DNA of 33,145 bases from a virus (Duplodnaviria; Heunggongvirae; Uroviricota; Caudoviricetes): IMG/VR virus record IMGVR_UViG_2879742664_000006; one strand, written 5' to 3'. The position numbers and the translations under genes are program-made. This document shows positions 1-33,145 of the stretch, in pieces. How positions within the stretch are numbered: position 1 is the stretch's first letter; the number at the start of each line of letters is the position of its first letter. Under the pieces are notes generated by a model. The model searched no databases. It was not told the DNA's origin and saw only the letters and a list, made by a program, of their open reading frames with translations.

Positions 1-55
1 GTGAACCGCCCCGGGAATCCTGGAGACTAAACTCCCTGAGAAAGAGGTAAACAGG

Positions 56-382
56 ATGACTAAAAATACTCGTTTTTCCCCCGAAGTCCGTCAGAGGGCG
101 ATTCGTATGGTTCTGGAAAGTCAGGGCGAATATGACTCACAGTGGGCGGCAATTTGTTCCATTGCCCCAAAGATTGGCTGTACACCGGAGACTCTGCGTG
201 TCTGGGTACGCCAGCATGAGCGGGATACCGGAGGCGGTGATGGCGGGCTCACCACCGCTGAACGTCAGCGTCTGAAAGAGCTGGAACGTGAAAATCGTGA
301 ACTGCGCCGCAGTAACGATATCCTTCGCCAGGCTTCCGCTTATTTTGCGAAGGCGGAGTTCGACCGCCTCTGGAAAAAGTGA
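56..382 (+). CDS. IS3-family transposase OrfA (HTH DNA-binding subunit)
   Basis: 108-aa [29 protein letters not shown]... with leucine-zipper-like C-terminus ([18 protein letters not shown]), typical of IS3-family OrfA. Confidence 0.9.
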
Positions 383-1269
383 TGCCACTGCTGGATAAGC
401 TGCGTAAGCTGTACGGGGTCGGACCGGTATGCAGTGAACTACATATTGCCCCGTCAACGTATTACCACTGTCAGCAACAGCGACATCATCCTGATAAACG
501 CAGTGCCCGTGCGCAGCGCGATGACTGGCTGAAGAAAGAGATACTGCGCGTATACGATGGGAATCATCAGGTATACGGTGTGCGTAAAGTCTGGCGTCAG
601 TTGTTACGGGAAGGTATCAGAGTGGCCAGATGCACTGTGGCACGTCTCATGGCGGTTATGGGACTTGCCGGTGTTCTCCGGGGTAAAAAGGTCCGTACGA
701 CCATCAGCCGGAAAGCCGTTGCCGCAGGCGACCGCGTAAACCGTCAGTTCGTGGCAGAACGACCTGACCAGCTGTGGGTGGCTGATTTTACTTACGTCAG
801 CACATGGCAGGGCTTCGTCTATGTGGCGTTCATTATTGATGTGTTTGCCGGATACATCGTGGGGTGGCGGGTCTCATCGTCCATGGAAACGACATTCGTG
901 CTGGATGCTCTGGAGCAGGCGTTATGGGCCCGTCGACCGTCCGGCACGGTCCATCACAGTGATAAAGGTTCTCAGTATGTATCGCTGGCCTACACACAGC
1001 GGCTTAAGGAAGCCGGATTACTGGCATCAACAGGAAGTACAGGCGACTCGTATGACAACGCGATGGCGGAGAGCATCAATGGTCTTTACAAAGCGGAGGT
1101 AATACACCGTAAGAGCTGGAAAAACCGTGCAGAAGTGGAACTGGCCACACTCACGTGGGTGGACTGGTATAATAATCGACGATTGCTGGAAAGGCTGGGC
1201 CACATCCCTCCGGCAGAAGCAGAAAAAGCTTATTATGCTTCCATCGGAAACGATGATCTGGCAGCCTGA
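379..1269 (+). CDS. IS3-family transposase OrfB (DDE catalytic domain), normally made as an OrfAB fusion by -1 frameshifting
   Basis: 296-aa ORF overlapping the orfA stop in the -1 frame; integrase-core-like residues (WVADFTY... HSDKGSQY... [15 protein letters not shown]). Confidence 0.9.
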
Positions 1270-1311
1270 GTTCACAGATAAAACACTCTCCAGGAAACCC
1301 GGGGCGGTTCA

Positions 1312-1430: not shown

Positions 1431-1695
1431 TGGATTTGCCCCTATATTTCCAGACATCTGTTATCACTTAACCCATTACAAGCCCGCTGCCGCAGATATT
1501 CCCGTGGCGAGTGATAACCCAGCGCACTATGCGGATGCCATTCGTTATAATGCTCGAACGCCTCTGCAAGGTTCTTTGCTGCCGTTAACCCGTCTGGTTT
1601 GGGCATGATACTGATGTAGTCACGCTTTATCGTTTTCACGAAGCTCTCTGCTATTCCGTTACTCTCCGGACTCCGCACCGCCGTGTTCTTCGGTT
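1431..1695 (-). mobile_element. IS2 right-end fragment (terminal repeat plus 3' end of insD), truncated by IS911
   Basis: Near-identical (1 mismatch seen) to the right end of the complete IS2 at 31416-31680; minus-strand ORF 1442..1768 encodes the InsD C-terminus ([25 protein letters not shown]...). Homology stops abruptly at 1695/1696 where the IS911 repeat begins. Confidence 0.8.
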
Positions 1696-1767
1696 TGAAG
1701 TGGCACACTGAATTTGGCCACCTGAACAGAGGTGATATGCTCACCTCAGAACAACACAGGTGCTCCA

Positions 1768-2936
<1,169 letters not shown>

Positions 2937-2944
2937 CCACTTCA

Positions 2945-3550: not shown

Positions 3551-3554
3551 ACCA

Positions 3555-4998: not shown

Positions 4999-6041
4999 TC
5001 AGGATGTGGGCTGGATGTCTAACAGTGCGTAAGGGTTAAAGCGGATCACCTCTTCGCCAAGCCAGTCATTGATGTGCTTCATGGCCTCCATGACGGGCAT
5101 CAGCTCGTTAATTGCGTAAACCCGCGCGGCCTTCTCCACATCACCAAACGCACTTTTTTCACCCGGCATCGCCCCCATCAGTTGCGGCGGAACGCGGTGC
5201 GCAGCCAGCACATCATCACGGGATGCCGCCTTAACATTCATGAACTCATCCTTTGCGGTGATCTGCTGGAACGGCAAAATTTGCACCCCCTCTTTGCCCC
5301 CGTTGGGCGCATGAATGAGCACGTTTTTAAACGCACCACCACCACGCGCACCCTGTAGCGTTTCTTTCAGGGAGTCCATGCTTTCGCGGTTTACCTGCGC
5401 GGCACCGATGTAGATGATGCACCCGGCGTGGGATCCGTTGTCGTAATACAGTTTTCTGAACATGTCCGCCGAATGAGACAGGCTGGCCGAGAGTAATGCG
5501 CCGAGATATTCCGGCATGCCGTAGATTTCCTGGTTAATGTCAGGATTCATCAGGTGACACACTTTGCCTGGGCGAAACTGAAACGCATCCTTGCCATCCT
5601 GCACATACCTCCATGATTCAAGATCGCTTCCGCGTCGCATGTATTTCGCCAGGGCGTGCCGTAATTTAAGCGGTTCGCCGAGCATATTGCTTCGAAGCTC
5701 AAGGAATGCGTTACCGAACACAAACCAGTCCAGCGCCAGCGCCAGCGCCGAGAAATCCTGCCGGGAAAGCAGCGGGTGCGGGATGTAGCAACCGAGCAAT
5801 ACATTGCGCTTAAAATAAAGCGCAGACTGATGCCAGGACGTTTGCCGGGCAGCTCTTGCCAGACCGTACCAGTCCACCGGGGTTTCATACCACCGCCCGT
5901 TATCAGCACAGTACATATTGTCCAGCAGGTCAGGCGATAAGGACCATCAAATGTGAATGCACTGAGCGATGATTCTTTCCTGAGCGCATCAGCGAGATCA
6001 ATGCGTGAACTCATGCGCACTTTTTTATTTTTTCTGCTCAT
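4999..6041 (-). pseudogene. Q: P2 gpQ-like portal protein, interrupted by a 1-bp frameshift near 5917-5946 as sequenced
   Basis: N-terminus MSRKNKKVRMSSRIDLADALRKESSLSAFTFDGP in one frame (track ORF 5550..6041), remainder MYCADNGRWYETPVDWYGL...RFNPYALLDIQPTS in another (4999..5916). Combined length 1043 nt is one short of a multiple of 3. Start overlaps the terminase stop (ATGA). Confidence 0.8.
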
Positions 6042-8806: not shown

Positions 8807-9858
8807 ATGAATCTGGTGATGTCAGATATTACCCGCAACAAGCTGGGTTGCTATATGGCGCAGCAGGTGTCGCTTAATAATATCCCGGTATCTGCACTGG
8901 TGTCGCGATTTACCGTGGAACCCGCGGTGCAGCAGCGTTTTGAAAACGCCTCAAAGGAAAGTACCGAATTTACGAAAAAAATAACGTGATCGGCGTGACC
9001 GACCAGAAAGGCGAAAAAATCCTCCTGGATACCACAGGACCGATTGCGCGCACGAATACCAGTTATGACGGCACAAAACGCCGTAACCCGAATAACGTGG
9101 TTGATCTGAAAAACCGCAAATATCAGTGTGAACAGGTGAACTACGACACGTTTATTTCGTATCCGCAGCTTGATGCCTGGTCGGCACACCCTGATTTTCA
9201 GTCCCGCATCAGCGCACAGATTGCCCGACAGGTGGCGCTTGACCGCATCATGATCGGTTTCAACGGCACGTCTCACGCGGATGAGTCCAACTTCAGCACC
9301 AACAAGCTGCTTCAGGACGTTAACGTGGGCTGGCTGGAGCACATCAGAACCGACGCCAGCGAACGCGTTATGAATGACGTGACGCTGACCTCCCGCAACA
9401 TGGACAACACCGTGGCGCACGCGGGTAAGTATGCGAACGCTGATGCACTGGTACAGGACGCGCGTTCATCCCTGCTAGATGAATGGCACAAGGAAGCTGA
9501 CGACCTCGTGGTGATTATGGGGCGCAACCTGTTTAACTCGCTGCGTCTGCCCGTGCTGAACAGCATCAGCGGCCAGAATCCCAATGCGGAATTACTCGCC
9601 GGGCAGCTCATCCTGTCATCGCGCACCATTGGCGGGCTGGGCGTGTTCCTTGCGCCGTTCTTCCCGGATGCAACGATGCTGATCACCTCGTTCAACAACC
9701 TGTCGATTTACTGGCAGAAAGGTTCAATGCGTCGCCTGATGAAAGACGAGCCGGAATACAACCGCATCGCCACCTACCAGTCCATCAATGACGCTTATGT
9801 CGTTGAAGACTATGGCAAGTGCGCGATGGTTACTGGCCTGAAGTTCGCCGACAGCTAA
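8807..9858 (+). pseudogene. N: P2 gpN-like major capsid protein, frameshifted in an A-run at about 8975-8986 as sequenced
   Basis: Track ORFs 8807..8989 (ends ...ESTEFTKKIT*) and 8986..9858 (...VIGVTDQKGEKILLDTTGPIA...) are both capsid-like and adjacent frames; adding one base in acgaaaaaaataacg gives continuous ...TEFTKKINVIGVTDQ.... Confidence 0.85.
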
Positions 9859-9903
9859 TCAACTCACGGCGGGCATCATGCCCGCCTGTAACGGAGAGCA
9901 AAA

Positions 9904-10650: not shown

Positions 10651-10817
10651 AAAGACAACGCGGAAGCCTGCAACACGAAAAACCACCGCGACGCAGAAGG
10701 CGAAGCGCGGTTAACGACTGACCCCGTCAGCGGGCGGCGTGCGCGGTGTTCCAGTTTGACTCCGTGACCGTTTACACCGCGCACCCACCGCCCGATTTTT
10801 TTTCAGGAGTGAACCCC

Positions 10818-11512: not shown

Positions 11513-11514
11513 CA

Positions 11515-16214: not shown

Positions 16215-18200
16215 ATGAGTACCACAACACGAAAATTTAAAACCATTATCACCGATACGGGTGCAAAAAAATTAGCTCAGGTAGCCGCGCCAGATGGTAA
16301 GCCTGTCCGCCTGACTCATATGGCCGTGGGCGACGGTGGCGGCACGTTGCCCACACCAGACAGTAAGCAGACCCGTCTGGTGCATGAGGTGTGGCGACAT
16401 ACTGTTAATCGCGTCATCCTGGACGCAACACATCAGAACCGCATTATTGCGGAGCTGGTTATTCCTCCTGAAACGGGCGGATTCTGGATCCGGGAAATTG
16501 GTGTATTTGATGAGCACGGCGATTTAATCGCGGTGGGAAATACTGCCGAAAGTTACAAGCCAGCCGTTGCCGAAGGGTCCGGTCGTGCACAAACATTTCG
16601 CACCATTCTGACCGTATCCAGCACTGCCACCGTGGCGCTTACCGTGGACAACACCATGGTGATGGCCACAGTGGATTACGTGGATGACAAACTGAAAGAG
16701 CATGAACAGTCACGACGTCACCCGGACGCCTCGCTGACCGCAAAAGGCTTTGTTCAACTCAGTAGCGCCACTAACAGCGTGTCTGAAACGCAGGCTGCAA
16801 CGCCGAAAGCAGTAAAGGCCGCGTATGATCTTGCTAACGGTAAATATACTGCGCAGGATGCCAGCACGACGCGAAAAGGCCTTGTCCAGCTCAGTAGCGC
16901 CACCAACAGCACGTCTGAAACGCAGGCTGCAACGCCGAAAGCAGTAAAGGCCGCGTATGACCTTGCTAACGCAAAATATACCGCTCAGGACGCCACGACG
17001 GCACAAAAAGGGATAGTCCAGCTCAGTAGTGCCACCAACAGCACGTCTGAAACACTGGCCGCGACATCGAAAGCGGTTAAGGCGGTAATGGATGAAACGA
17101 ACAAGAAAGCGCCCTTAAACAGTCCTGCGCTGACCGGAACGCCAACAACGCCAGCTGCGCGACAGGGAACGAATAATACCCAAATCGCAAGCACGGCTTT
17201 CGTTATGGCTGCGATTGCCGCCCTTGTAGATTCGTCACCTGACGCACTGAATACGCTGAACGAGTTAGCGGCGGCGCTGGGAAACGCCCCGAATTTTGCG
17301 ACCACCATGACTAACGCGCTTGCGGGTAAGCAACCGAAAGATGCCACCCTGACGGCGCTGGCCGGGCTTGCTACTGCGGCAGACAGGTTTCCGTATTTTA
17401 CGGGGAATGATGTCGCCAGCCTGGCAACCCTGACAAAAGTCGGGCGGGATATTCTTGCGAAATCGACCGTTGCTGCCGTTATCGAATACCTCGGTTTACG
17501 AGAACTCGGCACAAGCGGGGAGAAAATACCGTTACTCAGTACAGCGAATACCTGGACCAATCGACAAACATTCAGCGGTGGCCTTTCTGGGGAACTGTCC
17601 GGCAATGCCGCTACTGCAACAAAGCTGAAAACAGCACGAAAAATTGCTGGAGTTGGTTTTGATGGTTCTAGCGATATTTCAATTAGTGCCAAAAATGTCA
17701 ATGCATTTGCACTCCGACAAACAGGTAATACTGTTAATGGTGATACATCCGTTGGATGGAATTGGGATAGTGGTGCATATAACGCCCTGATTGGTGGTGC
17801 ATCTGCATTAATTCTTCACTTTAATATAAATGCTGGTAGCTGTCCTGCCGTACAATTCCGTGTGAATTATAAAAATGGTGGCATTTCCTACAGGTCGGCT
17901 CGTGATGGTTATGGGGTTGAATTAGGTTGGTCAGATTTCTATACCACGACACGAAAACCTTCAGCGGGAGATGTTGGTGCATATACGCGGGCAGAATGTA
18001 ACTCAAGGTTTATTACAGGTATTCGCCTTGGCGGTCTGTCATCTGTTCAGACATGGAATGGTCCCGGCTGGTCTGACAGGTCAGGTTATGTCGTTACGGG
18101 TTCAGTTAACGGAAACCGTGATGAATTAATTGATACAACACAGGCAAGGCCAATTCAGTATTGCATTAATGGGACGTGGTATAACGCGGGGAGTATTTAA
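16215..18200 (+). CDS. H: Tail fibre protein (P2 gpH-like), current fusion of constant N-terminal part with variable C-terminal segment Sv
   Basis: 661 aa; three tandem 44-aa collar repeats (KGxVQLSSATNSxSETQAATPKAVKAAYDLANxKYTAQDA); conserved crossover motif ...IEYLGLRE... at the gix-like site; followed by an assembly chaperone gene. Confidence 0.9.
   Translation: MSTTTRKFKTIITDTGAKKLAQVAAPDGKPVRLTHMAVGDGGGTLPTPDSKQTRLVHEVWRHTVNRVILDATHQNRIIAELVIPPETGGFWIREIGVFDEHGDLIAVGNTAESYKPAVAEGSGRAQTFRTILTVSSTATVALTVDNTMVMATVDYVDDKLKEHEQSRRHPDASLTAKGFVQLSSATNSVSETQAATPKAVKAAYDLANGKYTAQDASTTRKGLVQLSSATNSTSETQAATPKAVKAAYDLANAKYTAQDATTAQKGIVQLSSATNSTSETLAATSKAVKAVMDETNKKAPLNSPALTGTPTTPAARQGTNNTQIASTAFVMAAIAALVDSSPDALNTLNELAAALGNAPNFATTMTNALAGKQPKDATLTALAGLATAADRFPYFTGNDVASLATLTKVGRDILAKSTVAAVIEYLGLRELGTSGEKIPLLSTANTWTNRQTFSGGLSGELSGNAATATKLKTARKIAGVGFDGSSDISISAKNVNAFALRQTGNTVNGDTSVGWNWDSGAYNALIGGASALILHFNINAGSCPAVQFRVNYKNGGISYRSARDGYGVELGWSDFYTTTRKPSAGDVGAYTRAECNSRFITGIRLGGLSSVQTWNGPGWSDRSGYVVTGSVNGNRDELIDTTQARPIQYCINGTWYNAGSI
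16743..17100. repeat. Tandem 132-bp repeats (about 2.7 copies) inside the tail fibre gene
   Basis: Near-identical DNA units beginning aaaggc(t/c)ttgt(t/c)ca(a/g)ctcagtagcgcc at 16743 and 16875, partial third from 17007. Confidence 0.7.
17479..17504. other. Left gix/cix-like crossover site of the invertible fibre segment (inside H)
   Basis: ttatcgaatacctcggtttacgagaa is the imperfect inverted complement of the site at 20158-20183 (shared core cctcggtttac); lies at the EYLGL codons. Confidence 0.7.
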
Positions 18201-18202
18201 CG

Positions 18203-18736
18203 ATGATGCACTTAAAAAACATTACTGCTGGCAACCCTAAAACAAAAGAGCAATACCAGCTAACAAAGCAATTTAACATCAAATGGCTTTATTCAGATGA
18301 TGGGAAAAACTGGTATGAGGAACAAAAGAATTTCCAGCCAGACACTTTGAAAATGGTCTATTACCATAACGGCGTTATTATTTGTATTGAAAAGGATGTT
18401 TCAGCAATTAATCCGGAAGGCGCAAGCGTCGTTGAATTACCTGATATTACAGCAAATCGCCGGGCTGATATTTCGGGGAAATGGTTGTTCAAAGATGGCG
18501 TAGTGATAAAGCGAACTTATACCGAGGAAGAGCAGAGGCAACAAGCGGAAAATGAAAAGCAAAGCCTGTTGCAACTTGTCAGGGATAAAACCCAGCTATG
18601 GGACTCACAGCTACGGCTGGGCATCATTTCCGACGAGAATAAACAAAAATTAACCGAGTGGATGCTCTATGCGCAGAAAGTCGAATCTACAGACACCTCC
18701 AGCCTGCCAGTAACGTTTCCCGAACAACCAGAATGA
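18203..18736 (+). CDS. Tail fibre assembly chaperone (Tfa; P2 gpG / Mu U-like)
   Basis: 177-aa [40 protein letters not shown]...; directly after the fibre gene; paralogous to the minus-strand copy at 18765-19293. Confidence 0.85.
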   Translation: MMHLKNITAGNPKTKEQYQLTKQFNIKWLYSDDGKNWYEEQKNFQPDTLKMVYYHNGVIICIEKDVSAINPEGASVVELPDITANRRADISGKWLFKDGVVIKRTYTEEEQRQQAENEKQSLLQLVRDKTQLWDSQLRLGIISDENKQKLTEWMLYAQKVESTDTSSLPVTFPEQPE

Positions 18737-18739
18737 GAG

Positions 18740-18766
18740 AAGGCCCGATATTGGGCCTTAATTTTT
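18740..18766. terminator. Bidirectional terminator hairpin between the two convergent chaperone genes
   Basis: aaggccc-gatatt-gggcctt perfect hairpin followed by aattttt. Confidence 0.5.
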
Positions 18767-19293
18767 ACTCAGGCTTTTGTGGCCATTCGGGATTTGCTGT
18801 ATCCACACGGCTGACCAGAACGCTGTAGCGTTCCCATGACTCCAGTCGTGTGCGTTCCTCATCCATCGCCATATTCAGCCTGACAGCGCGTTCCAGTGGC
18901 TGAATAACGCTTTCAGCTTCAGAAAGCAACGCGACCTTTTGTGATTCGGCCTGTTGTTGCTGTTCGTCTGCTGTATAAATCCGCTTAACCACAGTTCCGT
19001 CCTTAAACATCCACTTCCCTGAATCATCGGCACGACGATTGGCTGTTATATCTGGAATCTCAACGACACTAAAGCCTTCGGGATTAAGCGTTGGGGCATC
19101 TTTGGTTATGGCAACAATAATATTATTTTCGTCGTATACAATCTTTATGGTGTCGTCCTGAAAGTTATTTACTTCCTCATACCAGTTTTTACCGTCTTCG
19201 GACCATAACCAGATAACATCAAAATTCTTTGTTAGCTGATATTGTTCTTTTGTTTTTGGATTTCCGGACTTAATATTTTTTAATATGCTGCAT
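18765..19293 (-). pseudogene. Alternate tail fibre assembly chaperone (Tfa', Mu U'-like), frameshifted at codons 5-6 as sequenced
   Basis: ATG at 19293 gives MQHIKKY* then stop; the body ([37 protein letters not shown]...) is in the +1 frame; removing one A from the A6 run (plus-strand T6 at 19276-19281) gives [17 protein letters not shown]..., colinear with Tfa. Confidence 0.7.
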
Positions 19294-19296
19294 AAT

Positions 19297-20157
19297 TTAC
19301 ACCTGTGCGACGTTATACCATGTGCCATTGATGTATTTTTGTATTGGTCTGAAGATGGCTTCATCATCGCCATCTACTTCACCAATGATTCTTAATCCGG
19401 TAATTGCGTGTCCGGCTTTTTCATAACGACCACCACGCGCCATCAATTGAACAACACGCGTACCCAGGCGAACATCTTTTACATAGCGTGAATCAAAATT
19501 CCCCCAGTTGCTGGGCTGTATCTGACCGTTAACAGAAAATATTACCGAGTTATCTGTATTTCGCTGGCTATAGAAATGCCATCCTGCCTCATTGCCTAAC
19601 TCTGCAACTACTGGACGGGTTGAAGCACCCCATAAATTAAACGTTGCATTCTTTGTGGAGTTGTTGGAGCTGGATAGCGTGAATTTTTTACCATCCCCGG
19701 CCTGAATATTTTTAAAAGCAATAGCCACTCCATTCTGAAAGCGGAATACACGCTGACTATTAGCATAAACATCCAGAATACCGTCTCCATTCTGTTTAAA
19801 TCCGGTGTCATTATCACCAAGAACAATAGAGCTACCACCTAACGCATTCGTCGAACCAACTCCAAGACTGCCATTAATGACAGCATTAACAAGAATATTT
19901 AGTGCATCCCATTTCAGCGTCATCAGGTCTTTTGTTGTGGTGCTCTGGCGGCTTCTCCATTTGAAATATTCATTGCCGTTGTCGCCTGTTTCAAACCACA
20001 TGTATGAATCAGTGTCACCATCGGCATCATTTTTAAATCCAATCTTCGCCCAGTCAGTATTTCGAATCCAGGCAAGGATTGAGTCATTTTCAAAAGTAAG
20101 CCCACCGGACAAGGTATCGCCATTTTTTTGCACGGCGTTACCAGCCCTGTTTACCGT
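19297..20157 (-). CDS. Alternate tail fibre C-terminal segment (Sv'), no start of its own; expressed only after inversion
   Basis: Minus-strand frame open from the right gix site (...[23 protein letters not shown]...) to a stop at 19297; C-terminus ...[17 protein letters not shown] parallels the current H C-terminus ...RPIQYCINGTWYNAGSI. Confidence 0.75.
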
Positions 20158-20183
20158 TTCCTGTAAACCGAGGTTTTAAATAA
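20158..20183. other. Right gix/cix-like crossover site of the invertible segment
   Basis: ttcctgtaaaccgaggttttaaataa closely resembles the Mu gix consensus as I remember it; inverted relative to 17479-17504; 54 bp upstream of the invertase gene. Confidence 0.75.
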
Positions 20184-20237
20184 TGGCCGTTTCTGGCCTG
20201 CATGGCATGATTTGCGCTTTTGGACGGGAGATTCAGT

Positions 20238-20837
20238 GTGCTGATTGGCTATGTAAGGGTATCAACAAATGACCAGAATACAGACCTGCAACGAAACGCT
20301 CTTGTTTGTGCAGGATGTGAACAAATATTTGAAGATAAATTAAGCGGGACAAAGACAGACCGACCGGGATTAAAACGCGCTTTAAAGCGCCTTCAAAAAG
20401 GTGACACGCTGGTTGTCTGGAAACTGGATCGCCTCGGGCGAAGCATGAAACATCTGATTTCTCTCGTCGGGGAACTACGGGAGCGAGGGATTAATTTTCG
20501 CAGTCTGACCGACAGCATAGACACATCTTCTCCAATGGGGCGTTTTTTCTTCCACGTGATGGGTGCCCTGGCTGAAATGGAACGTGAATTAATTGTTGAA
20601 CGTACACTGGCCGGGCTGGCGGCAGCGCGCGCAAGGGGGCGCACAGGCGGACGTCGACCGAAGCTGACAAAAGAACAGCATGAGCAAATAGCAAGGCTAA
20701 TCAAAAACGGGCACGACAGAAAACAACTGGCAATAATTTACGGCATTGGCACATCGACGATTTATCGTTATCACCCTGTAGGCGATATACAGACTGAAGA
20801 AACAACCGGGCAGACTCAGGAAAATGAAAACCGCTAA
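20238..20837 (+). CDS. Serine DNA invertase of the Pin/Gin/Cin/Hin family
   Basis: MLIGYVRVSTNDQNTDLQRNALVCAGCEQIFEDKLSGTKTDRPGLKRALKRL... (catalytic Ser in VRVSTNDQ), C-terminal HTH; GTG start inferred at 20238 inside track ORF 20220..20837. Confidence 0.9.
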   Translation: MLIGYVRVSTNDQNTDLQRNALVCAGCEQIFEDKLSGTKTDRPGLKRALKRLQKGDTLVVWKLDRLGRSMKHLISLVGELRERGINFRSLTDSIDTSSPMGRFFFHVMGALAEMERELIVERTLAGLAAARARGRTGGRRPKLTKEQHEQIARLIKNGHDRKQLAIIYGIGTSTIYRYHPVGDIQTEETTGQTQENENR

Positions 20838-21366: not shown

Positions 21367-24174
21367 TCAATCTTTATCGTAAAAACAGCCACGCCCGGCA
21401 CGGGCGCGCCGTTCCATTTCTGCCCTGACCATTTCACCGACCAGTTTCGCCAGTTCGCGGGGATTCTGCGTAACAACGTTATGCAGATGAACATGAATTT
21501 CACCACCAAATCCGAAGGCAACAGGCTCCCGGTTACGGGAAGTTACAGGAACTGATGCCACTGGAGATCGTATAGCCTCCGCCACCGGGCGGGAGCTGGC
21601 CGCAACAACAGGGACCAGCGCCGGAGGCAGCGGAGCCGGAACCACGGGTGTGATATTAATTGCGGGGGCAGGCTTACTGACCTGCGCAATCTTCCGCTCC
21701 TGCCACTCCCCACGAACAGCAAGTGCTCGGGGCAGGTTTTTAAAGACAATATCGCCGGGGCCAATGCGTTTTTTCGTCTCCTCAACCAGCTTACCTGTGT
21801 TATCAGCAATTTTGCTGAGTCTGCGCAGCGTACCGGTATTGCTGTCTGTGAGCGGTTTATTGTCTTTGGGGTTATCACCTCCGGTGCCATTGCCATTTTC
21901 CACAGGCTTCGGCGGATTGATTTTCGCCAGATCCCCCTGAAGCAAGGCAACCTTGTCCTGAAGAATGGCCGCACGCTGTGCGTCTTCGATTTTCTTGCGC
22001 GCCCTTTCCGCTTCATCCGGAAGCACACCAAGCTTTTCAAGTATCCACGCCAGCGTATCCAGCAACATTTTTGCAGGTGTCAGAACAAGTTGTAACGCAC
22101 CGCCAAGAACGTTACCGAATATCTCGCCAGCACTGGTACATTTATCCAGAGTTTCCTTGCTGGACTCCATCGGTGACAGCAGCGATTTAAACCAGTTAAA
22201 CACCTGGCTGATCCCACTCCCGATTGCGTCAAAAACAGGACCAAACCGTTCAAAGGTTTCGCGCAACGGGGTCAGCCTTTCCATAATCCCGCTGAACACC
22301 CCGGCAAAAAATGCCCTGATGGGATCCCAGTATTTCCAGATAAGAACGGCAGCTCCGGCAAGCGCAGCCACGATAAGACCAACCGGACTGAACAACGCCC
22401 CGATAGCGCCTCCCAGTAAAGAAACGGAACCCGTCACCATTCCCCATAGTGCTGGCAGAACCCTGACAGCATTCATTGATCCGGTCAGGAGGGAAAAACC
22501 AAGACGCAGTTTTGCCAGCGGGCCAGCAAGCACACCAATAGCCAGCGACAACGAGCCAACCGTTGCAGTCATTGCCAGCAATGCACCGCCTGCAATCAGT
22601 AGCTGGCGCGTCAGTGCGGGATGGGCCTGCGCCAGCGCCGTCACCTTTGATACCACACGCGTGAGCCACTGCGTGACAGAACGCAGCGGACCGTCAATCA
22701 GATCTGCAATGCGGATGCGCAACCCTTCCCATGCACTGCTGAGTGATTTCAGATCGCCGTCAAGGTTGTTGGCCATAACCTTTGCCGTGCGTTCAGCCTC
22801 ACCGCGCGCGCCTTCAAGTTCTTTTCTCAGTTTGGGTAAGGAGCCGTCACCTGCCGCATCAACGAGGGCCATAAATGATGTGAAAGCCTCTTCTCCGGCA
22901 ATGTCCTTAAAGAACGATACCCGGTCAACTTCCCCGTATTTGCGGGTAGCTTTATAAAGGTCAGCCAGCACATCCTCCATCGGGCGCATTTTGCCCCCGG
23001 CATCCGAGACAGACACGCCAAGCTCTTTCAGCGCCTCTGCTGCCGCCTTTGGCGGTGATGCCAGACGAGCCAGGCTGGCACGCATTGCCGTACCAGCATC
23101 ACTCCCCCTGATACCCATATTCGCCAGCACGCCCGCCATCGCTGCGGCCTGCTCCAGAGATATTCCCAGCTTACCCGCCACCGGACCTGCATATTTCATG
23201 GTTTCACCCAGTGCGCGAAGGTCAGTGTTGGTACGGGTAAACGCTGCGGTGAGTGTGTCGCCGACCCGGTCCATCTGGTCAGCAGAAAGACCGAACTGCG
23301 TCAGAATATTTGAGCCAATATCCGCCGTCTCACCGAGGTCCATACCGCCAGCCGTTGCCATGCTCAGTACGCCAGGGAGCGCAGCCTGAATGGCCTGTGG
23401 TGTAAAGCCAGCCATTGCAAGAAATGCCTGTCCACTGGCGGCATCGCCTGCGGTGAACTGCGTTTCAGAGCCAAGTTTTAACGCCTGCTCACGCAGCGCC
23501 TTAAACTGCGGGCTGTTCTGGTCGATTCGCGTCAGTGCCTGAACGCGGGACATCTCTTTGCCGAACCCGATCGCAGGCTGCAAAAAACGCCCGGCAGCAT
23601 AGCCGCCCGCCGCTGCCGCACCAATTGCCAGCGCACCACCTGTTTTCAGTTTTCCCGCTGTTTCCTGCGCGCGCGAATACCGCTCACGCGCCCGTGTTAC
23701 ACGCGCAAGCGCCTGCCGTTCGCGTTCAAGCTGGTTGTTGTACTGTTCGGTGCGTCTGATGGCCTGCTGGATGGTGTTATCGCTGCCTGTCAGGGAAATG
23801 CCGTGGCGTTTCAGCTCTCCGCCAAGCTCCCGCATTTTCTGAATTTCCCGTGTGCGCGATTCATTCAGGCGTTCAAGCCGGGTGCTTAACTGCTGCATCA
23901 GCTTTTGTTGTTTTTCGCTGAGCACTGTACCCGTGCGTTGTAACTGATTAAGGGCGTTAAGCTGGCGTCGTGCTTTCACGATGCCAGCATCCGCTTTACT
24001 GACAGCGTCACGGGCGCGCTCAAATGATCGCGCCTGACGCTCGAGATTTTTGATCGCCCCCTGCGTTCGCTGGATGGAGTCACCAAACTGCCCCATCAGG
24101 CGGCGGGCGTTTTCGGCAGGCCGGGTCAGCCTGTCAACGGCGCTGAAAGCGACCCGGATATCAAGAGTCTTCAT
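21367..24174 (-). CDS. T: Tail tape measure protein (P2 gpT-like)
   Basis: ~935-aa ORF, coiled-coil N-terminal third, Gly/Ala-rich hydrophobic middle; start placed at the Met of MKTLDIRV (RBS ggga); track ORF extends to 24210. Confidence 0.9.
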   Translation of the reverse strand: MKTLDIRVAFSAVDRLTRPAENARRLMGQFGDSIQRTQGAIKNLERQARSFERARDAVSKADAGIVKARRQLNALNQLQRTGTVLSEKQQKLMQQLSTRLERLNESRTREIQKMRELGGELKRHGISLTGSDNTIQQAIRRTEQYNNQLERERQALARVTRARERYSRAQETAGKLKTGGALAIGAAAAGGYAAGRFLQPAIGFGKEMSRVQALTRIDQNSPQFKALREQALKLGSETQFTAGDAASGQAFLAMAGFTPQAIQAALPGVLSMATAGGMDLGETADIGSNILTQFGLSADQMDRVGDTLTAAFTRTNTDLRALGETMKYAGPVAGKLGISLEQAAAMAGVLANMGIRGSDAGTAMRASLARLASPPKAAAEALKELGVSVSDAGGKMRPMEDVLADLYKATRKYGEVDRVSFFKDIAGEEAFTSFMALVDAAGDGSLPKLRKELEGARGEAERTAKVMANNLDGDLKSLSSAWEGLRIRIADLIDGPLRSVTQWLTRVVSKVTALAQAHPALTRQLLIAGGALLAMTATVGSLSLAIGVLAGPLAKLRLGFSLLTGSMNAVRVLPALWGMVTGSVSLLGGAIGALFSPVGLIVAALAGAAVLIWKYWDPIRAFFAGVFSGIMERLTPLRETFERFGPVFDAIGSGISQVFNWFKSLLSPMESSKETLDKCTSAGEIFGNVLGGALQLVLTPAKMLLDTLAWILEKLGVLPDEAERARKKIEDAQRAAILQDKVALLQGDLAKINPPKPVENGNGTGGDNPKDNKPLTDSNTGTLRRLSKIADNTGKLVEETKKRIGPGDIVFKNLPRALAVRGEWQERKIAQVSKPAPAINITPVVPAPLPPALVPVVAASSRPVAEAIRSPVASVPVTSRNREPVAFGFGGEIHVHLHNVVTQNPRELAKLVGEMVRAEMERRARAGRGCFYDKD

Positions 24175-24754: not shown

Positions 24755-25265
24755 TCAGCCAAGCCCAAGCGCGGAACGGATGCGATCGGGCACAATGTCC
24801 TTGCCGTCCTTCCGGTAAATGAAGTTCAGCAGGTCAATCTCCCACAACGGGCGATCGTTAACACTCAGCTTGTAGTAGGTGTTTTAATGGCGTAAGTGTG
24901 TGATGTGGCTTCGCCCTGTTTGGCTTCCCCCATATCAATTTCCGTCACACGTCCGCGCATTTCGACTTCATACAGGTCGCTTTCTGCATCGGTGTAGTAT
25001 TCACCCGCAAAACGCAGCAGCGTGCCGTCAATCGTGCCGCCATACTTAAGGAACAGCTCACGAACTGCGCCCCCATGACAAAGCTCGCATCAAGCGCGGA
25101 GTCGTCCAGACCGAGATCAATACTTACCGCACCCATCATGCCACCACCCCGGTAGCTGTCGGTTTTGCGCGTCAGCTTAGGCAGAGTGACGGACGTCACA
25201 TTACCCACTTCGTTTTCACCATCCACAAACAGCGTAAAAAAGCGAAGATGTTTTGGCACAGCCAT
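24755..25265 (-). pseudogene. FII: P2 gpFII-like tail tube protein with two 1-bp frameshifts as sequenced
   Basis: N-terminal part in track ORF 24945..25265 (MAVPKHLRFFTLFVDGENEVGNVTSVTLPKLTRKTDSYRGGG...); tube-like sequence continues in two other frames (...GGAVRELFLKYGGTIDGTLLRFAGEYY..., then ...YYKLSVNDRPLWEIDLLNFIYRKDGKDIVPDRIRSALGLG*). Frame changes at a C5 run (25070-25074) and a T4 run (24883-24886). Confidence 0.8.
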
Positions 25266-26449: not shown

Positions 26450-26606
26450 AGCTTCAGCCCCTTGTATCCGTTAAATGATTCAGCAACAATCATCACCCAC
26501 CACGCGCGTAATCTCACCCCTGCGCCGTTCTCCCGCCACGGCGACAACAAAAAGCAGTAACCCCCTCCGCACGCACATGCGACCATGCCGCACAGGGAGG
26601 GAGCAG

Positions 26607-27716
26607 ATGACCGACACCACCATGCAATTGCTCAGTCAGGGCACGGCCCCCGTGAAAATGCCGGATTTTGATATTCTCTCGGAGGGTAAAACGCTGTCAG
26701 GCGTGGCGGAGCGCCTGATGAGCCTGTAACTGACCGACAACCGGGGATTTGAGGCGGACCAGCTCACCATCACGCTGGATGATGCGGATGGTCAGTTGCA
26801 GCTACCGCCACGGGGCGCGCGTCTGACGGTTCTCATTGGCTGGAAAGGGGAACCGCTGACAGAAAAAGGCACTTACATTGTTGATGAAATCGCTCACGAA
26901 GGACCGCCGGACAGGCTGACTGTTTCAGCCAGAAGCGCAGATTTTCGGGATGAATTTAACGTTAAACGTGAGGTGTCCTGGCATGATGTGACCGTTGAGC
27001 GTGTGGTATCCGCCATCACTCATCGGTACGGTCTGAAACCGCAAATCAGCGAAATGCTGATGGATATCGAAATCGACCACGCCGACCAGACCGAAGAAAG
27101 CGACATGTCCTTTCTTACGCGCATGGCGGAAATGCTGGGAGCAATCGCCACGGTAAAAAGCGGCAATCTGTTATTCATCATGCCAGGTGGTGGCGTGAAC
27201 GCACAGGGGCAGCCGTTGCCCTCGTTCGCCATTACACGCAGCAGCGGCGATCGCCATCAGTTCCGCATTGCTGACCGCGAGGCGTATACGGGGGTACGCG
27301 CCTACTGGCTTGATCTTAATTACGGGAAAAAGAAAAAAGTCAGCGTGAAACGCCGCAAACCGCCAAAACCCAAAAAGGAGAAAAGCAGCAGTCGGGAAGG
27401 CGACTATATGGAAGGTGCGGAAGGCAACGTGTTTGTGTTACGCAAGACTTATCAGAACGAGCAGGCAGCAAGACGCGCAGCGGCGGCAAAGTGGCAGCAG
27501 CTACAACGCGGAGCCGCATCATTCTCCATCACGCTGGCGCGTGGTCGTGCAGAACTCTATCCCGAAATGCATGGCACAGTGACAGGCTTTAAAAGCGAGA
27601 TTGATTATCAGGACTGGACTATTGCAAAAGCCGAGCACACCATTGATAACAGCGGCTTTACCACGCAGCTTGAACTTGAAGCAAAAATCCCGGAATGGAT
27701 AGCAGAAACAGAATAA
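26607..27716 (+). pseudogene. D: P2 gpD-like tail protein with an in-frame TAA stop at codon 41 (26727-26729)
   Basis: ATG 26607 with RBS agggaggg; track ORFs 26475..26729 and 26796..27716 are in the same frame, separated only by TAA; D-like sequence reads continuously across it (...GVAERLMSL*LTDNRGFEADQLTITLDDADGQLQLPPRGARLTVLIGWKGEPL...). Confidence 0.8.
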
Positions 27717-27964
27717 ATCTCTTAAAAATATTATTTTTGAGATGTGCTTCTACACTGACAGTAAGAACAAAAGATAATGTATCAGCCCACTAGATGTCAG
27801 AGGTTGGGGCATCAACCAGATGCTAACAATAATACGGATGTTTTTCCCACATGACAGAGGAAGTCAAGTATAATCTTCACAGTCCATCCCGTCCAAGGGA
27901 ATATGACTCAATAGTAAAAGTTCCAGTTTAGTTAGTAGACCCACACTTTATAGAAGAGTAATTC

Positions 27965-30900
27965 ATGATTGGACAATTTTTAAGTGCAACAGAGATTTTA
28001 GCAAAGAACTATGTTCGTAATAAAATGGTTAAAAATCCATTTTATTCGAATTTAAAATGGAATTTTATTGAAAAAAACATCATAAGATTAACATCCTCAC
28101 CGGTTAAATCAGTACTTTGCATATCAGCTTTTTCATTTGTACTACTTTATGTTGGATATTTAAACGAATTATTTATAAAAAATAATCTTTTACATTATTT
28201 CCCGTTTAGGCATTCATTAACCGAATGGCAAACAACCATTTTAAGTGGCCAATTGACAATTATTGGTATTGTATACCCCCTTGTTATAGGTTTAGTAAGT
28301 GTCTTATTCCAAAAAAAGGCAGATAGAAAAATAGCCCAAACTGCTTATCAGCGTTACTCAGGATTCATGCTTGCTGGACTCAGCGGGCTTTTCTTATCAG
28401 GATTTATACTTCTCAGTGTACTAATTAAAACTGTCTTTGGAAGTTATCTTTATGGTATAGCTTGTCTAATCAGCATATTATGGCTTTTGATAAACATAGT
28501 TCTTTCTATTTGGTTCTTTATCGTGAGTCTTGAAATTCTTGATGATGTAAAACGGCAAATAATTATAAAGCGATACATTGCCTTCGAAATAGTAATGCCC
28601 CATATTTGTAACAAAATATCAGCCAAGCTTAGGTTATACCCTATCTATCAAAAACATAACTATTCAAATTTAGAAATCACGCAAGCCGATTACAAAGGAG
28701 AATACATATCTGTGGCTAGCAGTTATTCTAAGGAAGATGAGTTAAGTTTATATCACCGTCCTTTTCAACTTACTCTTAATCTTATTAATTACCAACTAAA
28801 AAAGAAGAATCATTTTGCGTCATTTGTCATTGGTGATAATCGTACAAAAGAAACAGAATCCACGGGTAAGATACTTTTTAGCGTTAAAAATATCAAACCA
28901 GACAGCTTATTAATAAAAATACTTAAGCAATGTTTTTATAGGGCTCCGATTAAAGGAGGAGATTTTTCCGTAAGTCTTACAATGCAGGCTATAACAGCAG
29001 ATACGTATATGTATCTGCGGGATTCTGATCTCATTAGTTTTGACAATGCTATCTCTGCATTAATTAATAACTTTAATAATCTCTGCGATTTGTATTTTTT
29101 TCAAGATGATAATACCAACAATAACTTCTTACTGATCACTACAGAATTATTTGAACGGAGTTTTCAATATGAGTTTTCAGATGAAGTTTATAAAATATCA
29201 AATAATTCCATGGATAAAATTAATCTTTCTGAAAGATTTTTTGAATTATGTCTTTGGAGCGGAGTGCGTATTATCAATAATAGAAAACATCTTATCAGCA
29301 ATGAACTTTGTATCTATATGGGAATTACTCGTTCACAATGGTCAATATTAACAGAATGGTTCCGAAACAACCAATCACTCTTAAATGCCTCGCTTCGTTC
29401 ACGTTATAATCGTATATTAAGAACCTATATCACTGTTTGGGAGCAATATCAAGAAAGCATAAACTTTCGTTTCTGCAATACAGAGAATTCAGATTTATTT
29501 GAATTATTTTGCAAAACGCAACTACAAGAACTTCCATCGATGATTATTGATGCAACACAGACTCGCGATCCTTCTACTATTGATACAGCCGTCGATCTTA
29601 TTAACCGATGGCAGCACTCAATGAATATTGACAGCCATTCGGTAGAAAAATACAGTTACAAAGGCCAGCTTTTTAACCCGGGTTTTTTCATATCCAAAAA
29701 ACTAAACTTCAATTCAGACAGAGAGTGGTTCAATATTGCCATCATAAATGCGTTGACTGACATGCGTATATGCACATGTCTTTATCTGACATCAAGAATC
29801 AATACTTCTGACAAACTAATGACACATTACATTAAACTTATTTTAGAGGGTAAACTTATTGACCAAACCGGTGGATATGAAACTCCCACTGAAGAAATTG
29901 ATAATGCAAGCCAACTAATCAAGATATTAATTAGAATCTGCCTGTGGACATGGTCTGAAAATATGGAGCACAATGGGTGGATGAATAGTTTAGCAAGGCG
30001 TTTACGTGACTATGATAAAACAGACATGGTGATGGGCAGAGTTTACAGTAATGTTTTTGACTGTGGATTTATTGATATGGAACAATCATGGGTTCAGCTA
30101 TTATTAATTTTTTCTAACAAGAACGATAGCGTATCAAAAGAAATAAAAGAAGCAATAGAAAACAACTATATAACATATCGTGAGAAGCAACGACTCATTG
30201 GAGTATTATCAAAAATTTGTAACTCCATCGAATACACTAAAATCAAGCTGACTTTAACATTGGACGATCTCCAAACAAAAAAAGAAAACTTAAGAAAGTT
30301 GCTTCAAGAGCATATTAACATGCTAAAGAAAGATCTTGATATGAGACTTCAGGATGCTGCCATAGATGTACATCGACTAGATAGCACTGCACGTAAAACA
30401 TCAGAACATCTTCGTAAACGCATCAAGAAAACGCTCCCTCTTTCACTTTTCAAATCTATTGATTTTAAGCAGGCTAGCGATTGTTTCACAAAACATAAGA
30501 TATCTATTAAGATAGATAAAGAACCGTATGCCGAAGGAATAGAATCCATCCCTTATATCAATGAAGGTGATATTCAAGCAGACTTAATTCTCAAGGACAT
30601 CCAGAGAATAATACTTTCAAATTTATTTAGCACTGGCTGTTCGCAACATACCGTAATAGAAGATTTCAATATGTTGATTGATCACATAAAATCATCTGCT
30701 GACTTGGCTGGCAAACTGGTTCTTGTGATGAGTAAAGAGATCTTTCAGCAATATAATCGTATGCTTTTCGATAATCCCAACCTCAGAGAACTAATGAGAA
30801 AAAATGATGATGGCTCTATGAACATAACTACTGAATCCGGTACCCGTAAGGTTTACTTCTTACCATTTGTTAATCAACCATTTTCTCTTGTGGTAAAGGA

Positions 30901-31084
30901 TAACTACTTCACTAAATTAATTATTAGAGAATATGATAATAATAAGTTAGTAAATGTCACTTCAGAGAATATCAAAAGTGACTCAGATAAATTCAAGCTA
31001 ACTCTTAACTATGAGTTGAATATAGTATTTGAAGGAAACGCTGATTTAAAAATAGCTCACTCGCAAAGAGTGACATCAGAATAA
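27965..31084 (+). CDS. Large membrane-anchored protein of unknown function (1039 aa), AT-rich cargo gene
   Basis: Single uninterrupted ORF, visibly AT-rich (about 17 G+C in the first 60 nt) against GC-rich phage genes; N-terminal hydrophobic helices (residues ~50-190), then ~850 aa with no recognisable motif; possible -10 box TATAAT at 27869-27874. Confidence 0.8.
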   Translation: MIGQFLSATEILAKNYVRNKMVKNPFYSNLKWNFIEKNIIRLTSSPVKSVLCISAFSFVLLYVGYLNELFIKNNLLHYFPFRHSLTEWQTTILSGQLTIIGIVYPLVIGLVSVLFQKKADRKIAQTAYQRYSGFMLAGLSGLFLSGFILLSVLIKTVFGSYLYGIACLISILWLLINIVLSIWFFIVSLEILDDVKRQIIIKRYIAFEIVMPHICNKISAKLRLYPIYQKHNYSNLEITQADYKGEYISVASSYSKEDELSLYHRPFQLTLNLINYQLKKKNHFASFVIGDNRTKETESTGKILFSVKNIKPDSLLIKILKQCFYRAPIKGGDFSVSLTMQAITADTYMYLRDSDLISFDNAISALINNFNNLCDLYFFQDDNTNNNFLLITTELFERSFQYEFSDEVYKISNNSMDKINLSERFFELCLWSGVRIINNRKHLISNELCIYMGITRSQWSILTEWFRNNQSLLNASLRSRYNRILRTYITVWEQYQESINFRFCNTENSDLFELFCKTQLQELPSMIIDATQTRDPSTIDTAVDLINRWQHSMNIDSHSVEKYSYKGQLFNPGFFISKKLNFNSDREWFNIAIINALTDMRICTCLYLTSRINTSDKLMTHYIKLILEGKLIDQTGGYETPTEEIDNASQLIKILIRICLWTWSENMEHNGWMNSLARRLRDYDKTDMVMGRVYSNVFDCGFIDMEQSWVQLLLIFSNKNDSVSKEIKEAIENNYITYREKQRLIGVLSKICNSIEYTKIKLTLTLDDLQTKKENLRKLLQEHINMLKKDLDMRLQDAAIDVHRLDSTARKTSEHLRKRIKKTLPLSLFKSIDFKQASDCFTKHKISIKIDKEPYAEGIESIPYINEGDIQADLILKDIQRIILSNLFSTGCSQHTVIEDFNMLIDHIKSSADLAGKLVLVMSKEIFQQYNRMLFDNPNLRELMRKNDDGSMNITTESGTRKVYFLPFVNQPFSLVVKDNYFTKLIIREYDNNKLVNVTSENIKSDSDKFKLTLNYELNIVFEGNADLKIAHSQRVTSE

Positions 31085-31219
31085 TATCTTTGACGGCGCT
31101 CCTTAGAGTGCCGTTCGTTTATTAACTAATGCTAAAAATCATTATATAGAGAAAGTCATGTTTAAATCTTAGAGAATACAACCTAGAATAGTGTAAGCAC
31201 TACAATAAGAGAGGTCGCT

Positions 31220-31415
31220 ATGTTCCGTTGTCCGCTTTGTGGCGCATCTGCCCGTATCCGCACCAGTCGTCCGGAAAATGATTCAAACACCGTGAGACAA
31301 AAGTATTATCAGTGTAACAATCTAGAATGCGGCGTATGTTTCTCAACACTGGAAGCCTTCCACAAATTCACTTCAAAGCACGCCTCCCCCATTCACTCAT
31401 CAGAGGGCATCCCGT
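31220..31415 (+). pseudogene. ogr: ogr-like zinc-finger late-gene activator, 3' end split off by IS2 (remaining codons at 32746-32823)
   Basis: MFRCPLCGASARIRTSRPENDSNTVRQKYYQCNNLECGVCF... (CxxC...CxxxxC); the IS2 terminal repeat begins at 31416 inside the frame, which resumes after the IS2 left end as ...PWHELPTSHRGNNQMSLPLPQN*. Confidence 0.8.
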
Positions 31416-31426
31416 TGGATTTGCCC

Positions 31427-32331
31427 CTATATTTCCAGACATCTGTTATCACTTAACCCATTACAAGCCCGCTGCCGCAGATATTCCCGTGGCGAGCGAT
31501 AACCCAGCGCACTATGCGGATGCCATTCGTTATAATGCTCGAACGCCTCTGCAAGGTTCTTTGCTGCCGTTAACCCGTCTGGTTTGGGCATGATACTGAT
31601 GTAGTCACGCTTTATCGTTTTCACGAAGCTCTCTGCTATTCCGTTACTCTCCGGACTCCGCACCGCCGTGTTCTTCGGTTCAAGTCCCAACATCCGGGCG
31701 AACTGGCGTGTTTCATTAGCCCGGTAGCATGAACCATTATCCGTCAGCCACTCCACTGGAGACGACGGAAGATCGTTGCCGAAGCGGCGTTCCACCGCTC
31801 CCAGCATGACGTCCTGTACTGTTTCACTGTTGAAGCCGCCGGTAGTCACCGCCCAGTGCAGTGCCTCACGATCACAGCAGTCCAGCGCGAACGTGACACG
31901 CAGTCTCTCTCCGTTATCACAGCAGAACTCGAACCCGTCAGAGCACCATCGCTGATTGCTTTCTTTCACGGCCACTCTGCCTGTATGTGCCCGTTTCGAT
32001 GGCGGTACAGCAGGTTTTCGTCAAGCAACAGCGCATTCTGGCGCATGATCCGGTAAACACGTTTGGCATTGATCGCAGGCATACCATCAAGTTCTGCCTG
32101 TCTGCGAAGCAGCGCCCATACCCGACGATAACCATACGTGGGCAGCTCTCCGATAACATGGTGTATACGGAGAAGCACATCCGTATCATCAGTGTGACGA
32201 CTGCGGCGGCCATCCATCCAGTCATCGGTTCGTCTGAGAATGACGTGCAACTGCGCACGCGACACCCGGAGACAACGGCTGACTAAGCTTACTCCCCATC
32301 CCCGGGCAATAAGGGCGCGTGCGCTATCCAC
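31427..32331 (-). pseudogene. insD: IS2 transposase OrfB (InsD) with an internal 1-bp frameshift near 32019-32025
   Basis: Split into track ORFs 31966..32331 ([12 protein letters not shown]...[28 protein letters not shown]) and 31427..31975 ([17 protein letters not shown]...); the shifted frame reads [24 protein letters not shown], so one base is missing around cttga(a)cgaaaacc. Confidence 0.8.
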
Positions 32332-32654
32332 TTTTTTGCCCGTCCATATTCAACGGCTTCTTTGAGGAGTTCATTTTCCATCGTTTTCTTGCCGAGCAGG
32401 CGCTGGAGTTCTTTAATCTGCTTCATGGCGGCAGCAAGTTCAGAGGCAGGAACAACCTGTTCTCCGGCGGCCACAGCAGTAAGACTTCCTTCCTGGTATT
32501 GCTTACGCCAGAGAAATAACTGGCTGGCTGCTACACCATGTTGCCGGGCAACGAGGGAGACCGTCATCCCCGGTTCAAAGCTCTGCTGAACAATTGCGAT
32601 CTTTTCCTGTGTGGTACGCCGTCTGCGTTTCTCCGGCCCTAAGACATCAATCAT
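32289..32654 (-). CDS. insC: IS2 transposase OrfA (InsC)
   Basis: [56 protein letters not shown]...; track ORF starts 15 codons upstream at 32699. Confidence 0.85.
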
Positions 32655-33004
32655 CTGTACTCCAATGACTAGTCTAAAAACTAGTATTAAGACTATCACT
32701 TATTTAAGTGATACTGGTTGTCTGGAGATTCAGGGGGCCAGTCTACCGTGGCATGAACTGCCAACTTCACACAGAGGAAACAATCAGATGAGTTTGCCCT
32801 TACCTCAGAATTAACGAGCAGAATTGCCGGAGTAACAAAAAAGCGATAGATTACGCGCGGGTGCCTTTCGGCTGATGGTCGGAGGGAATACCTGAAGGCC
32901 AGATGTGGAAAGGCCCCGGAAAACATTTTTGTTTAACCGAGGCCCTAACCGTCTACCCTAAGCAAGTGATAGGTTAGCGCCTCCCCGAAAAAGGAGCAAG
33001 CGCT

Positions 33005-33145
33005 ATGTCGCAAAAATCGCTTACGGCCATCACGTTCTGCGTGACGGCAATCCTCATCATCTGGATGCTGCACGGTTCGCTGTGCGAAATACGGATGAGC
33101 TTCTGGGGAGCGGAGTTTGCGGCGTTCTTACAGTGTAAGCAGTAA
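33005..33145 (+). CDS. Hok/Gef/PndA-family type I toxin (small membrane peptide), putative
   Basis: 46-aa ORF MSQKSLTAITFCVTAILIIWMLHGSLCEIRMSFWGAEFAAFLQCKQ: one TM helix then SLCEIR and E(F)AAF motifs as in Hok/PndA (from memory); RBS aaggag 8 nt upstream. Too short for the ORF track. Confidence 0.5.
   Translation: MSQKSLTAITFCVTAILIIWMLHGSLCEIRMSFWGAEFAAFLQCKQ

Follow-up and report, generated by a model that had tools for sequence, protein, structure and literature searches.

The window analysed here, a 33,145-nucleotide stretch of viral DNA (Caudoviricetes; IMG/VR record IMGVR_UViG_2879742664_000006), carries an ogr gene of the late-gene activator type that is interrupted near its 3' end by the insertion sequence (IS) IS2. 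We read this, with a probability of roughly 0.9, as an insertion both old and ordinary, by which IS2 entered ogr in a P88-like Shigella prophage; in this decayed prophage it would be one of at least nine lesions. The insertion (ogr::IS2) would then be one step in the IS-driven decay of Shigella genomes and not the switch that grounded the phage, and the locus is of small significance, a textbook case of such prophage decay. The feature is already known, as both the chimeric protein and the IS2 are annotated in public genomes; the exact fusion protein is found on 169 public contigs and is named 'MULTISPECIES: ogr/Delta-like zinc finger family protein [Shigella]' by NCBI. Coordinates of the features are collected in Table 1.

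The ogr open reading frame (ORF) starts at position 31220 on the plus strand and is in frame to 31415, reading MFRCPLCGASARIRTSRPENDSNTVRQKYYQCNNLECGVCFSTLEAFHKFTSKHASPIHSSEGIP and then, from 31416, TGGATTTGCCCC. IS2 interrupts the gene after codon 65 of 86, and in the resulting chimera of 78 amino acids (aa) 21 native Ogr residues are exchanged for 13 IS-encoded ones. When IS2 was taken out together with a single copy of the repeat, so that 31220-31415 ran on directly at 32750, an 86-aa ORF ending in ...GIPWHELPTSHRGNNQMSLPLPQN was obtained. By its domain and alignment matches the interrupted gene is a member of the Ogr/Delta family: Pfam PF04606 matches residues 3-49 of the reconstructed and chimeric proteins with 52.3 and 52.7 bits, respectively (gathering cut-off 26.3), PHROG 603 (transcriptional regulator) matches the Ogr protein, and BLASTP alignment to P2 Ogr (from NC_001895) gave 38% identity (E 9e-15). 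NCBIfam PRK09678 (OgrK) scored 44.6 bits, under its cut-off of 116, so the ogr gene of the window is not an equivalog. The zinc-binding cysteines are Cys4, Cys7, Cys32 and Cys37; in an alignment that included P2 Ogr, Cys4, Cys32 and Cys37 are invariant and Cys7 nearly so. Its place is at the right end, following gene D, and P2 and P88 have it there too.

Aligned end to end, the inserted element has 99.7% identity with two 1331-bp E. coli copies, both labelled 'IS3-like element IS2 family transposase' in RefSeq. Its termini (TGGATTTGCCCC beginning at 31416 and ...GGGGGCCAGTCTA finishing at 32745) are identical to the outermost ends of these reference copies, and imperfect terminal inverted repeats of 33 nt (79% complementary) are located at 31424-31456 and 32704-32736. 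Size and identity, terminal inverted repeats and a 5-bp target duplication (described below) thus all agree with IS2, and the feature that is missing is an orfA-orfB frameshift fusion. The functional IS2 transposase is OrfAB, which is made by programmed -1 frameshifting at an A6G sequence (PMC3299598). In the window orfB is split by a 1-bp deletion between 32020 and 32021 (TTTTCG-TCAAG vs TTTTCGCTCAAG), outside any homopolymer, and because OrfAB is the functional transposase, this copy is unable to supply its own. The element is therefore IS2 by descent, full-length with both ends, and not autonomous.

These results bear out the observation made in a preliminary description of the window, and part of its interpretation. 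It correctly had ogr enter IS2 at 31416 and resume at 32746, after the other IS2 end, and its identification of IS2 and of the Ogr family agrees with the matches given above. Its 'complete IS2' is not supported: the element is full-length with both ends present, but orfB is frameshifted and the length is 1330, not 1331, bp. The replacement of C-terminal residues by IS sequence is likewise real, although it affects 21 residues and not the 22 first counted.

The sequence CCGT is present directly outside both IS2 ends (31412-31415 and 32746-32749), and was originally taken as the target duplication. Ten complete or long Shigella assemblies carrying the exact 78-aa chimera were compared (L006 to L015), and the left junction is common to all. 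Half of them (L006, L009, L010, L012 and L014) have CCCGT on both sides of a 1331-bp IS2 with intact orfB. In L007 the 1331-bp IS2 is followed by CCGT, in L008 (CP000036.1) an IS2 of 1319 bp is followed by CCGT, and in L011, L013 and L015, as in the window, an IS2 of 1330 bp with the orfB deletion is followed by CCGT; the left copy is CCCGT throughout. By this comparison the ancestral duplication is the 5-bp CCCGT and the 4-bp repeat is its decayed remnant. A true 4-bp IS2 duplication was considered and rejected, given CCCGT on both sides in five sister genomes. The orfB deletion, found in L011, L013, L015 and the window, is absent from six other Shigella copies, which argues that it arose after the insertion. 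The ten genomes thus present a series that begins with a pristine insertion (5-bp duplication, intact 1331-bp IS2), passes to one short of a repeat base and finishes with a disrupted transposase frame.

The empty site is available for comparison as well. The reconstructed 712 bp align without a break to E. coli VG38-53E1 (99.9% identity), the ogr of this strain translates to exactly the reconstructed 86-aa protein, and an uninterrupted ogr-hok segment is present in 1158 of 5426 complete E. coli genomes. With 5-bp repeats in the sister genomes and this empty site, the initial proposal of a simple insertion with target duplication is upheld. IS2 moves in two steps, via a figure-of-eight and a minicircle, and leaves as its signature the direct repeats that flank insertions (PMC3299598). 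In the window's lineage, IS2 would have entered CCCGT at codons 64-66 by the copy-out/paste-in route of the IS3 family (with a minicircle intermediate), duplicating the 5-bp target and lying with its transposase antisense to ogr. A single ancestral Shigella event would account for the insertion common to all ten assemblies; in the window's sub-lineage the right repeat would then have lost one C and orfB, after that, one base, probably by slippage or deletion.

The remainder of the window is, judging by gene order and nucleotide identity, a decayed remnant of a P88-like prophage (Xuanwuvirus, P2-type). P88 and the window are collinear over two stretches, one of 12.9 kb with 97.7% nucleotide identity and one of 7.6 kb with 96.0%, and also match protein by protein; membership in Xuanwuvirus follows from this gene order and identity. 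The right end of the window (27220-33145, 5,926 bp) is 100% identical to CP026811.1, the left end (1-14520, 14,520 bp) is identical to the same record, and the prophage is located between btuC and hok-ihfA.

Lesions were called by comparison with phage P88. IS3-family elements have accumulated at the left end of the prophage (window 1-2944 and positions 5943-6071 of L024). The first of these, which we take by its ends to be IS629-like, cuts the integrase, of which only residues 282-324 of 331 are left, just left of the window; relative to P88, 281 integrase residues are missing. In place of P88 coordinates 2888-9209, including replication gene A, the window has a 265-bp IS2 fragment and an IS911-like element, and it lacks C, cox and the beginning of the early operon. 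The IS2 fragment and the ogr copy are in direct orientation, 30 kb apart. The portal (Q), major capsid (N) and tail tube (FII) genes are frameshifted and gene D contains a stop codon (Table 1). In the relative E. coli VG38-53E1, where the same cargo gene separates D from ogr, D is open and ogr intact. Five or six independent assemblies have the lesions in portal and capsid and at the IS junctions, which are for this reason considered real and old. Having lost integrase, C, cox and gene A, and with defects in Q, N, FII and D, the prophage would be unable to make particles, whatever Ogr does. One further candidate lesion, an inversion of the tail operon that splits D (FI-to-U on the minus strand, D on the plus strand), was rejected; functional P88 is arranged alike, and D aligns full length in one frame.

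It is scarcely credible that errors of assembly or sequencing produced the interrupted gene, the frameshift in orfB or the repeat of 4 bp. IS copies are classic misassembly sites and some of the 1-bp differences fall in homopolymers (the right repeat, CCC>CC, and two in FII), but ten independent assemblies have identical junctions, the orfB deletion is outside a homopolymer and common to four genomes, the CCGT state is common to six, and the portal, capsid and IS junction lesions recur in five or six assemblies. Sequencing error was accordingly rejected for the frameshifts in orfB, portal and capsid and for the IS junctions, which are seen in several assemblies; the FII changes may be such errors.

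Inactivation of Ogr by the insertion is possible. The PF04606 domain (residues 3-49) is intact in the chimera, and the insertion point is outside it; this is the four-cysteine zinc-ribbon through which P2 Ogr binds the -55 dyad at late promoters and touches RNA polymerase alpha. In the AlphaFold model of a 95%-identical intact homologue, residues 1-48, which form three strands and the zinc knuckles, have predicted local distance difference test (pLDDT) values of 84-90, whereas values from residue 51 onwards are 44-58, so the cut at 65/66 would fall in a probably disordered tail. On P2 Ogr (72 aa) the cut corresponds to residue 70 by BLASTP (W66 aligned to W71) and to residue 59 by MAFFT (P65 aligned to R59). 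Residue 70 was not kept, as the tail alignment is ambiguous, and we place the cut at or beyond residue 59. A 1993 study in J Bacteriol by Gebhardt and colleagues reportedly found C-terminal truncation of P2 Ogr to be without effect on transactivation. We infer that the chimera would still be able to fold and bind DNA; the chance that it also retains transcription activation appears about even.

Several points weigh against our reading of a minor, ordinary lesion. The removed tail contains a motif, IP[WRYH]xx[LF]PxSH[RY]GxxQ[LMI]xL, that is kept in homologues only 54-69% identical, and this conservation argues that the lost tail has a function; the foreign, hydrophobic 13-residue tail might in addition destabilise the chimera. 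The FII (homopolymer) and D lesions rest on the window sequence. Every Shigella copy examined has all the checkable lesions, and ogr::IS2 could have been historically the first of them. Finally, the host chromosome is assigned to Shigella from the names attached to exact proteins. The motif is missing from P2 Ogr, where it is at best degenerate, and from some Salmonella homologues.

The preliminary description held that IS2 inactivates Ogr and that this alone locks the prophage in a defective state, which we consider somewhat unlikely. P2 late transcription depends on Ogr (PMC3152322), 21 residues with a conserved motif have been lost and a foreign hydrophobic tail gained, and ogr::IS2 is possibly the earliest of the lesions. 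On the other side, the zinc-ribbon is intact, the cut lies in a low-confidence and probably disordered tail, at or beyond residue 59 of 72 of P2 Ogr in either alignment, and at least eight other lesions are each enough to block excision, replication or assembly. The proposal that the insertion alone would lock the prophage is moot here because of these many other disabling lesions. The truncation is a natural experiment on the need for the conserved C-terminal tail in this Ogr subfamily. If the chimera is active and Shigella keeps it as a domesticated regulator, a reading that we consider very unlikely (see below), the lost motif IPWxxLPxSHRGxxQxxL would be a separate regulatory module of Xuanwuvirus Ogr, such as a control or turnover signal.

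The identical chimeric ORF occurs on the 169 contigs across Shigella species, and a promoter-like signal and the intact domain are kept while neighbouring genes decay, as might be expected if Shigella had domesticated the truncated Ogr as a useful activator, for example of late genes in incoming P2-type phages or P4-type satellites; it would then be comparable to the functional ogr of cryptic P2 remnants in E. coli K-12 and B. Identity is, however, expected without selection among close genomes, as the flanking 5.9 kb are 99.6-100% identical, and the many frameshifted or truncated ogr alleles in public data are what neutral decay predicts. That the 78-aa chimera still activates late promoters and is held by Shigella as a domesticated regulator is on this evidence very unlikely. 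Public E. coli data hold many other frameshifted, deleted or IS-fused ogr alleles (P0013, P0017, P0021, P0036-P0038, P0041), which suggests that the ogr of P88-like prophages is often pseudogenised, or often subject to sequencing errors.

IS2 is found near ogr in other genomes. E. coli STEC384/379 have an independent IS2 that lies downstream of the Shigella site by 9 bp, has the orientation of the Shigella copy and is flanked by a TGAAC duplication; other copies lie upstream of ogr (ETEC4068, strain 165) or downstream of hok (CFIAFB20180511, TO6). These insertions around the ogr-hok segment, together with the link between IS2 target choice and local DNA curvature (PMC3299598), would fit a preferred IS2 target at the 3' end of ogr. 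The hits are biased, however, as the query held both IS2 and ogr, and only one E. coli event is inside ogr. By rough arithmetic (taking each genome to have about 5 IS2 places, and the ogr-hok segment to be present in about 1550 genomes), about 3 genomes with IS2 within 2 kb are expected by chance, against about 5 independent events seen. The pattern is suggestive but within rough chance expectation, so that a hot spot is not demonstrated and we regard it as unlikely.

Table 1. Positions of the interrupted ogr gene, its IS2 and other features. Numbers refer to the window except in the last row.
Feature	Position	Strand	Remarks
5' ogr part	31220..31415	+	codons 1-65 and first base of codon 66; complete Ogr_Delta zinc-ribbon (residues 3-49)
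Chimeric ORF	31220..31456	+	78 aa: 65 Ogr residues and 13 from the IS2 right inverted repeat, then stop
Displaced 3' ogr end	32750..32814	+	codons 66-86 (WHELPTSHRGNNQMSLPLPQN) and stop at 32812-32814; carries the subfamily-conserved C-terminal motif
IS2 (IS3 family)	31416..32745	-	1330 bp; right inverted repeat (IRR) end 31416, left inverted repeat (IRL) end 32745; transposase genes antisense to ogr
IS2 orfA (insC)	32289..32654	-	121 aa, intact; A6G frameshift window at about 32331-32337
IS2 orfB (insD)	31427..32331	-	disrupted; split into 31966-32331 (121 aa) and 31427-31975 (182 aa)
Left target duplication copy, CCCGT	31411..31415		5 bp
Right target duplication copy, CCGT	32746..32749		one C of CCCGT lost
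Sigma-70-like promoter signal, TTTAAA-17-TAGAAT	31161..31189	+	upstream of ogr, unaffected by the insertion; consensus match only
IS3-family element	2..1311	+	truncates integrase
DUF4754 early-gene fragment	1309-1430		122 bp
Second IS2 fragment	1431..1695	-	265 bp, IRR end; abuts DUF4754 fragment
IS911-like IS3-family element	1696..2944	+	runs into parM, which lacks its first 118 codons
Portal gene Q	4999..6041	-	frameshift, 10-bp deletion at 5932; common to six assemblies
Major capsid gene N	8807..9858	+	frameshift, 1-bp deletion at 8982; common to six assemblies
Tail tube gene FII	24758..25265	-	two 1-bp deletions in homopolymer runs, at 24881 and 25069; seen in the window
Gene D	26607..27716	+	TAA at 26727-26729 (codon 41) vs TCA (Ser41) in P88; seen in the window
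1039-aa ORF	27965-31084	+	between D and ogr
Hok/Gef-family toxin gene	33005-33145	+	46 aa; PF01848, PHROG 251 'MokW-like host killing'; just after ogr
IS2 in ogr of E. coli STEC384	L002 6249-7579		intact 1331 bp; gives 81-aa chimera

The promoter-type match upstream of ogr is no commoner in the window than in shuffled sequence. Ogr is a small, zinc-binding protein, an activator that attaches to inverted repeats near -55 and makes contact with RNA polymerase's alpha subunit, and P2 late transcription needs it (PMC3152322). No exact TGT-N12-ACA, the dyad of P2-type late promoters, was found in the late intergenic regions of the window. A related dyad, GTTCT-N12-ACAAC, occurs with zero mismatches in the divergent P/O (7855-7876) and FI/D (26527-26548) intergenic regions, with one further copy inside the tape-measure gene (22089-22110); these dyads are candidate sites for the window's Ogr.

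The 1039-aa cargo gene is probably a more interesting object than the nearby ogr::IS2. It has a GC content of 32.8% (vs about 55% for phage genes) and encodes about four N-terminal membrane segments, and the protein has no match in Pfam, NCBIfam, PADLOC, PHROGs or PDB sequences. The NCBI name, 'MFS transporter', is unsupported by these analyses. Its family consists of proteins of 1030-1070 aa in Enterobacterales, and a 27%-identical paralogue is found on plasmids of 100-200 kb, adjoining genes for an AAA_15/AAA_21 ATPase and a RES-domain protein. Between D and ogr, E. coli STEC384 and ETEC4068 have hxsABCD and P88 has nothing in this slot, and these differences among relatives make it look like a variable cargo slot. 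The 1039-aa gene is a candidate defence or exclusion gene, whose type we leave unassigned. The hok/gef gene that follows ogr is part of the phage genome (P88 gp52) and not of the host chromosome. In an Rfam scan of the window the sole hit was the ALIL frameshift pseudoknot of the IS3 family (337-453); Sok RNA was not among the results.

Three further observations concern other parts of the phage genome. The invertible tail-fibre segment (17702-20187), which comprises G/G' assembly genes and alternative C-termini for H, has the reverse of its orientation in the P88 record. The DNA invertase (20220-20837) departs from that of P88 after residue 183 of 195. Between the portal gene and the partition genes there is a 196-aa Ead/Ea22-like gene (3930-4520, plus strand), a position occupied in P88 by other small ORFs; from this comparison the stretch is another variable region of P88-like phages.

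Compared with known systems, the window is closest in layout to Escherichia phage P88 (Xuanwuvirus, Peduoviridae), with which it has a common gene order and 96-98% identity over about 20 kb. Both have the unusual placement of the FI-to-U tail operon on the strand opposite D, an invertible tail-fibre segment with a DNA invertase, and ogr followed by a phage-borne hok/gef gene. The window differs from P88 in being without int, C, cox, the early operon and gene A, in the three elements or fragments of the IS3 family that it has at the left end, in the defects of its Q, N, FII and D genes, in having an IS2 in ogr, and in the 1039-aa AT-rich gene between D and ogr, which P88 lacks.

The IS2 resembles those of E. 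coli and Shigella in its termini, its orfA/orfB arrangement with the A6G window and its ancestral 5-bp duplication, and differs from typical copies in its length of 1330 bp, its frameshifted orfB and a right-hand duplication that is one base short. The insertion in STEC384/379 is similar in ogr allele family, in its site next to hok-ihfA, in orientation and in the IS-encoded tail of the product, yet it arose independently, its 1331-bp IS2 is intact, and hxsABCD takes the place of the 1039-aa gene. P2 Ogr/ogrK and the ogr of the window have in common the four-cysteine Ogr_Delta zinc-ribbon, the small size and the position after D at the right end of the prophage. They differ in sequence (38% identity), in length (86 aa in the window vs 72 aa) and in the conserved C-terminal motif of the window-type Ogr, which is at best degenerate in P2 Ogr, and IS2 has interrupted the window gene and become fused to it. 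Cryptic P2 remnants with a functional ogr (ogrK) are present in E. coli K-12 and B, and the window's ogr is like these in its survival within a decayed prophage.

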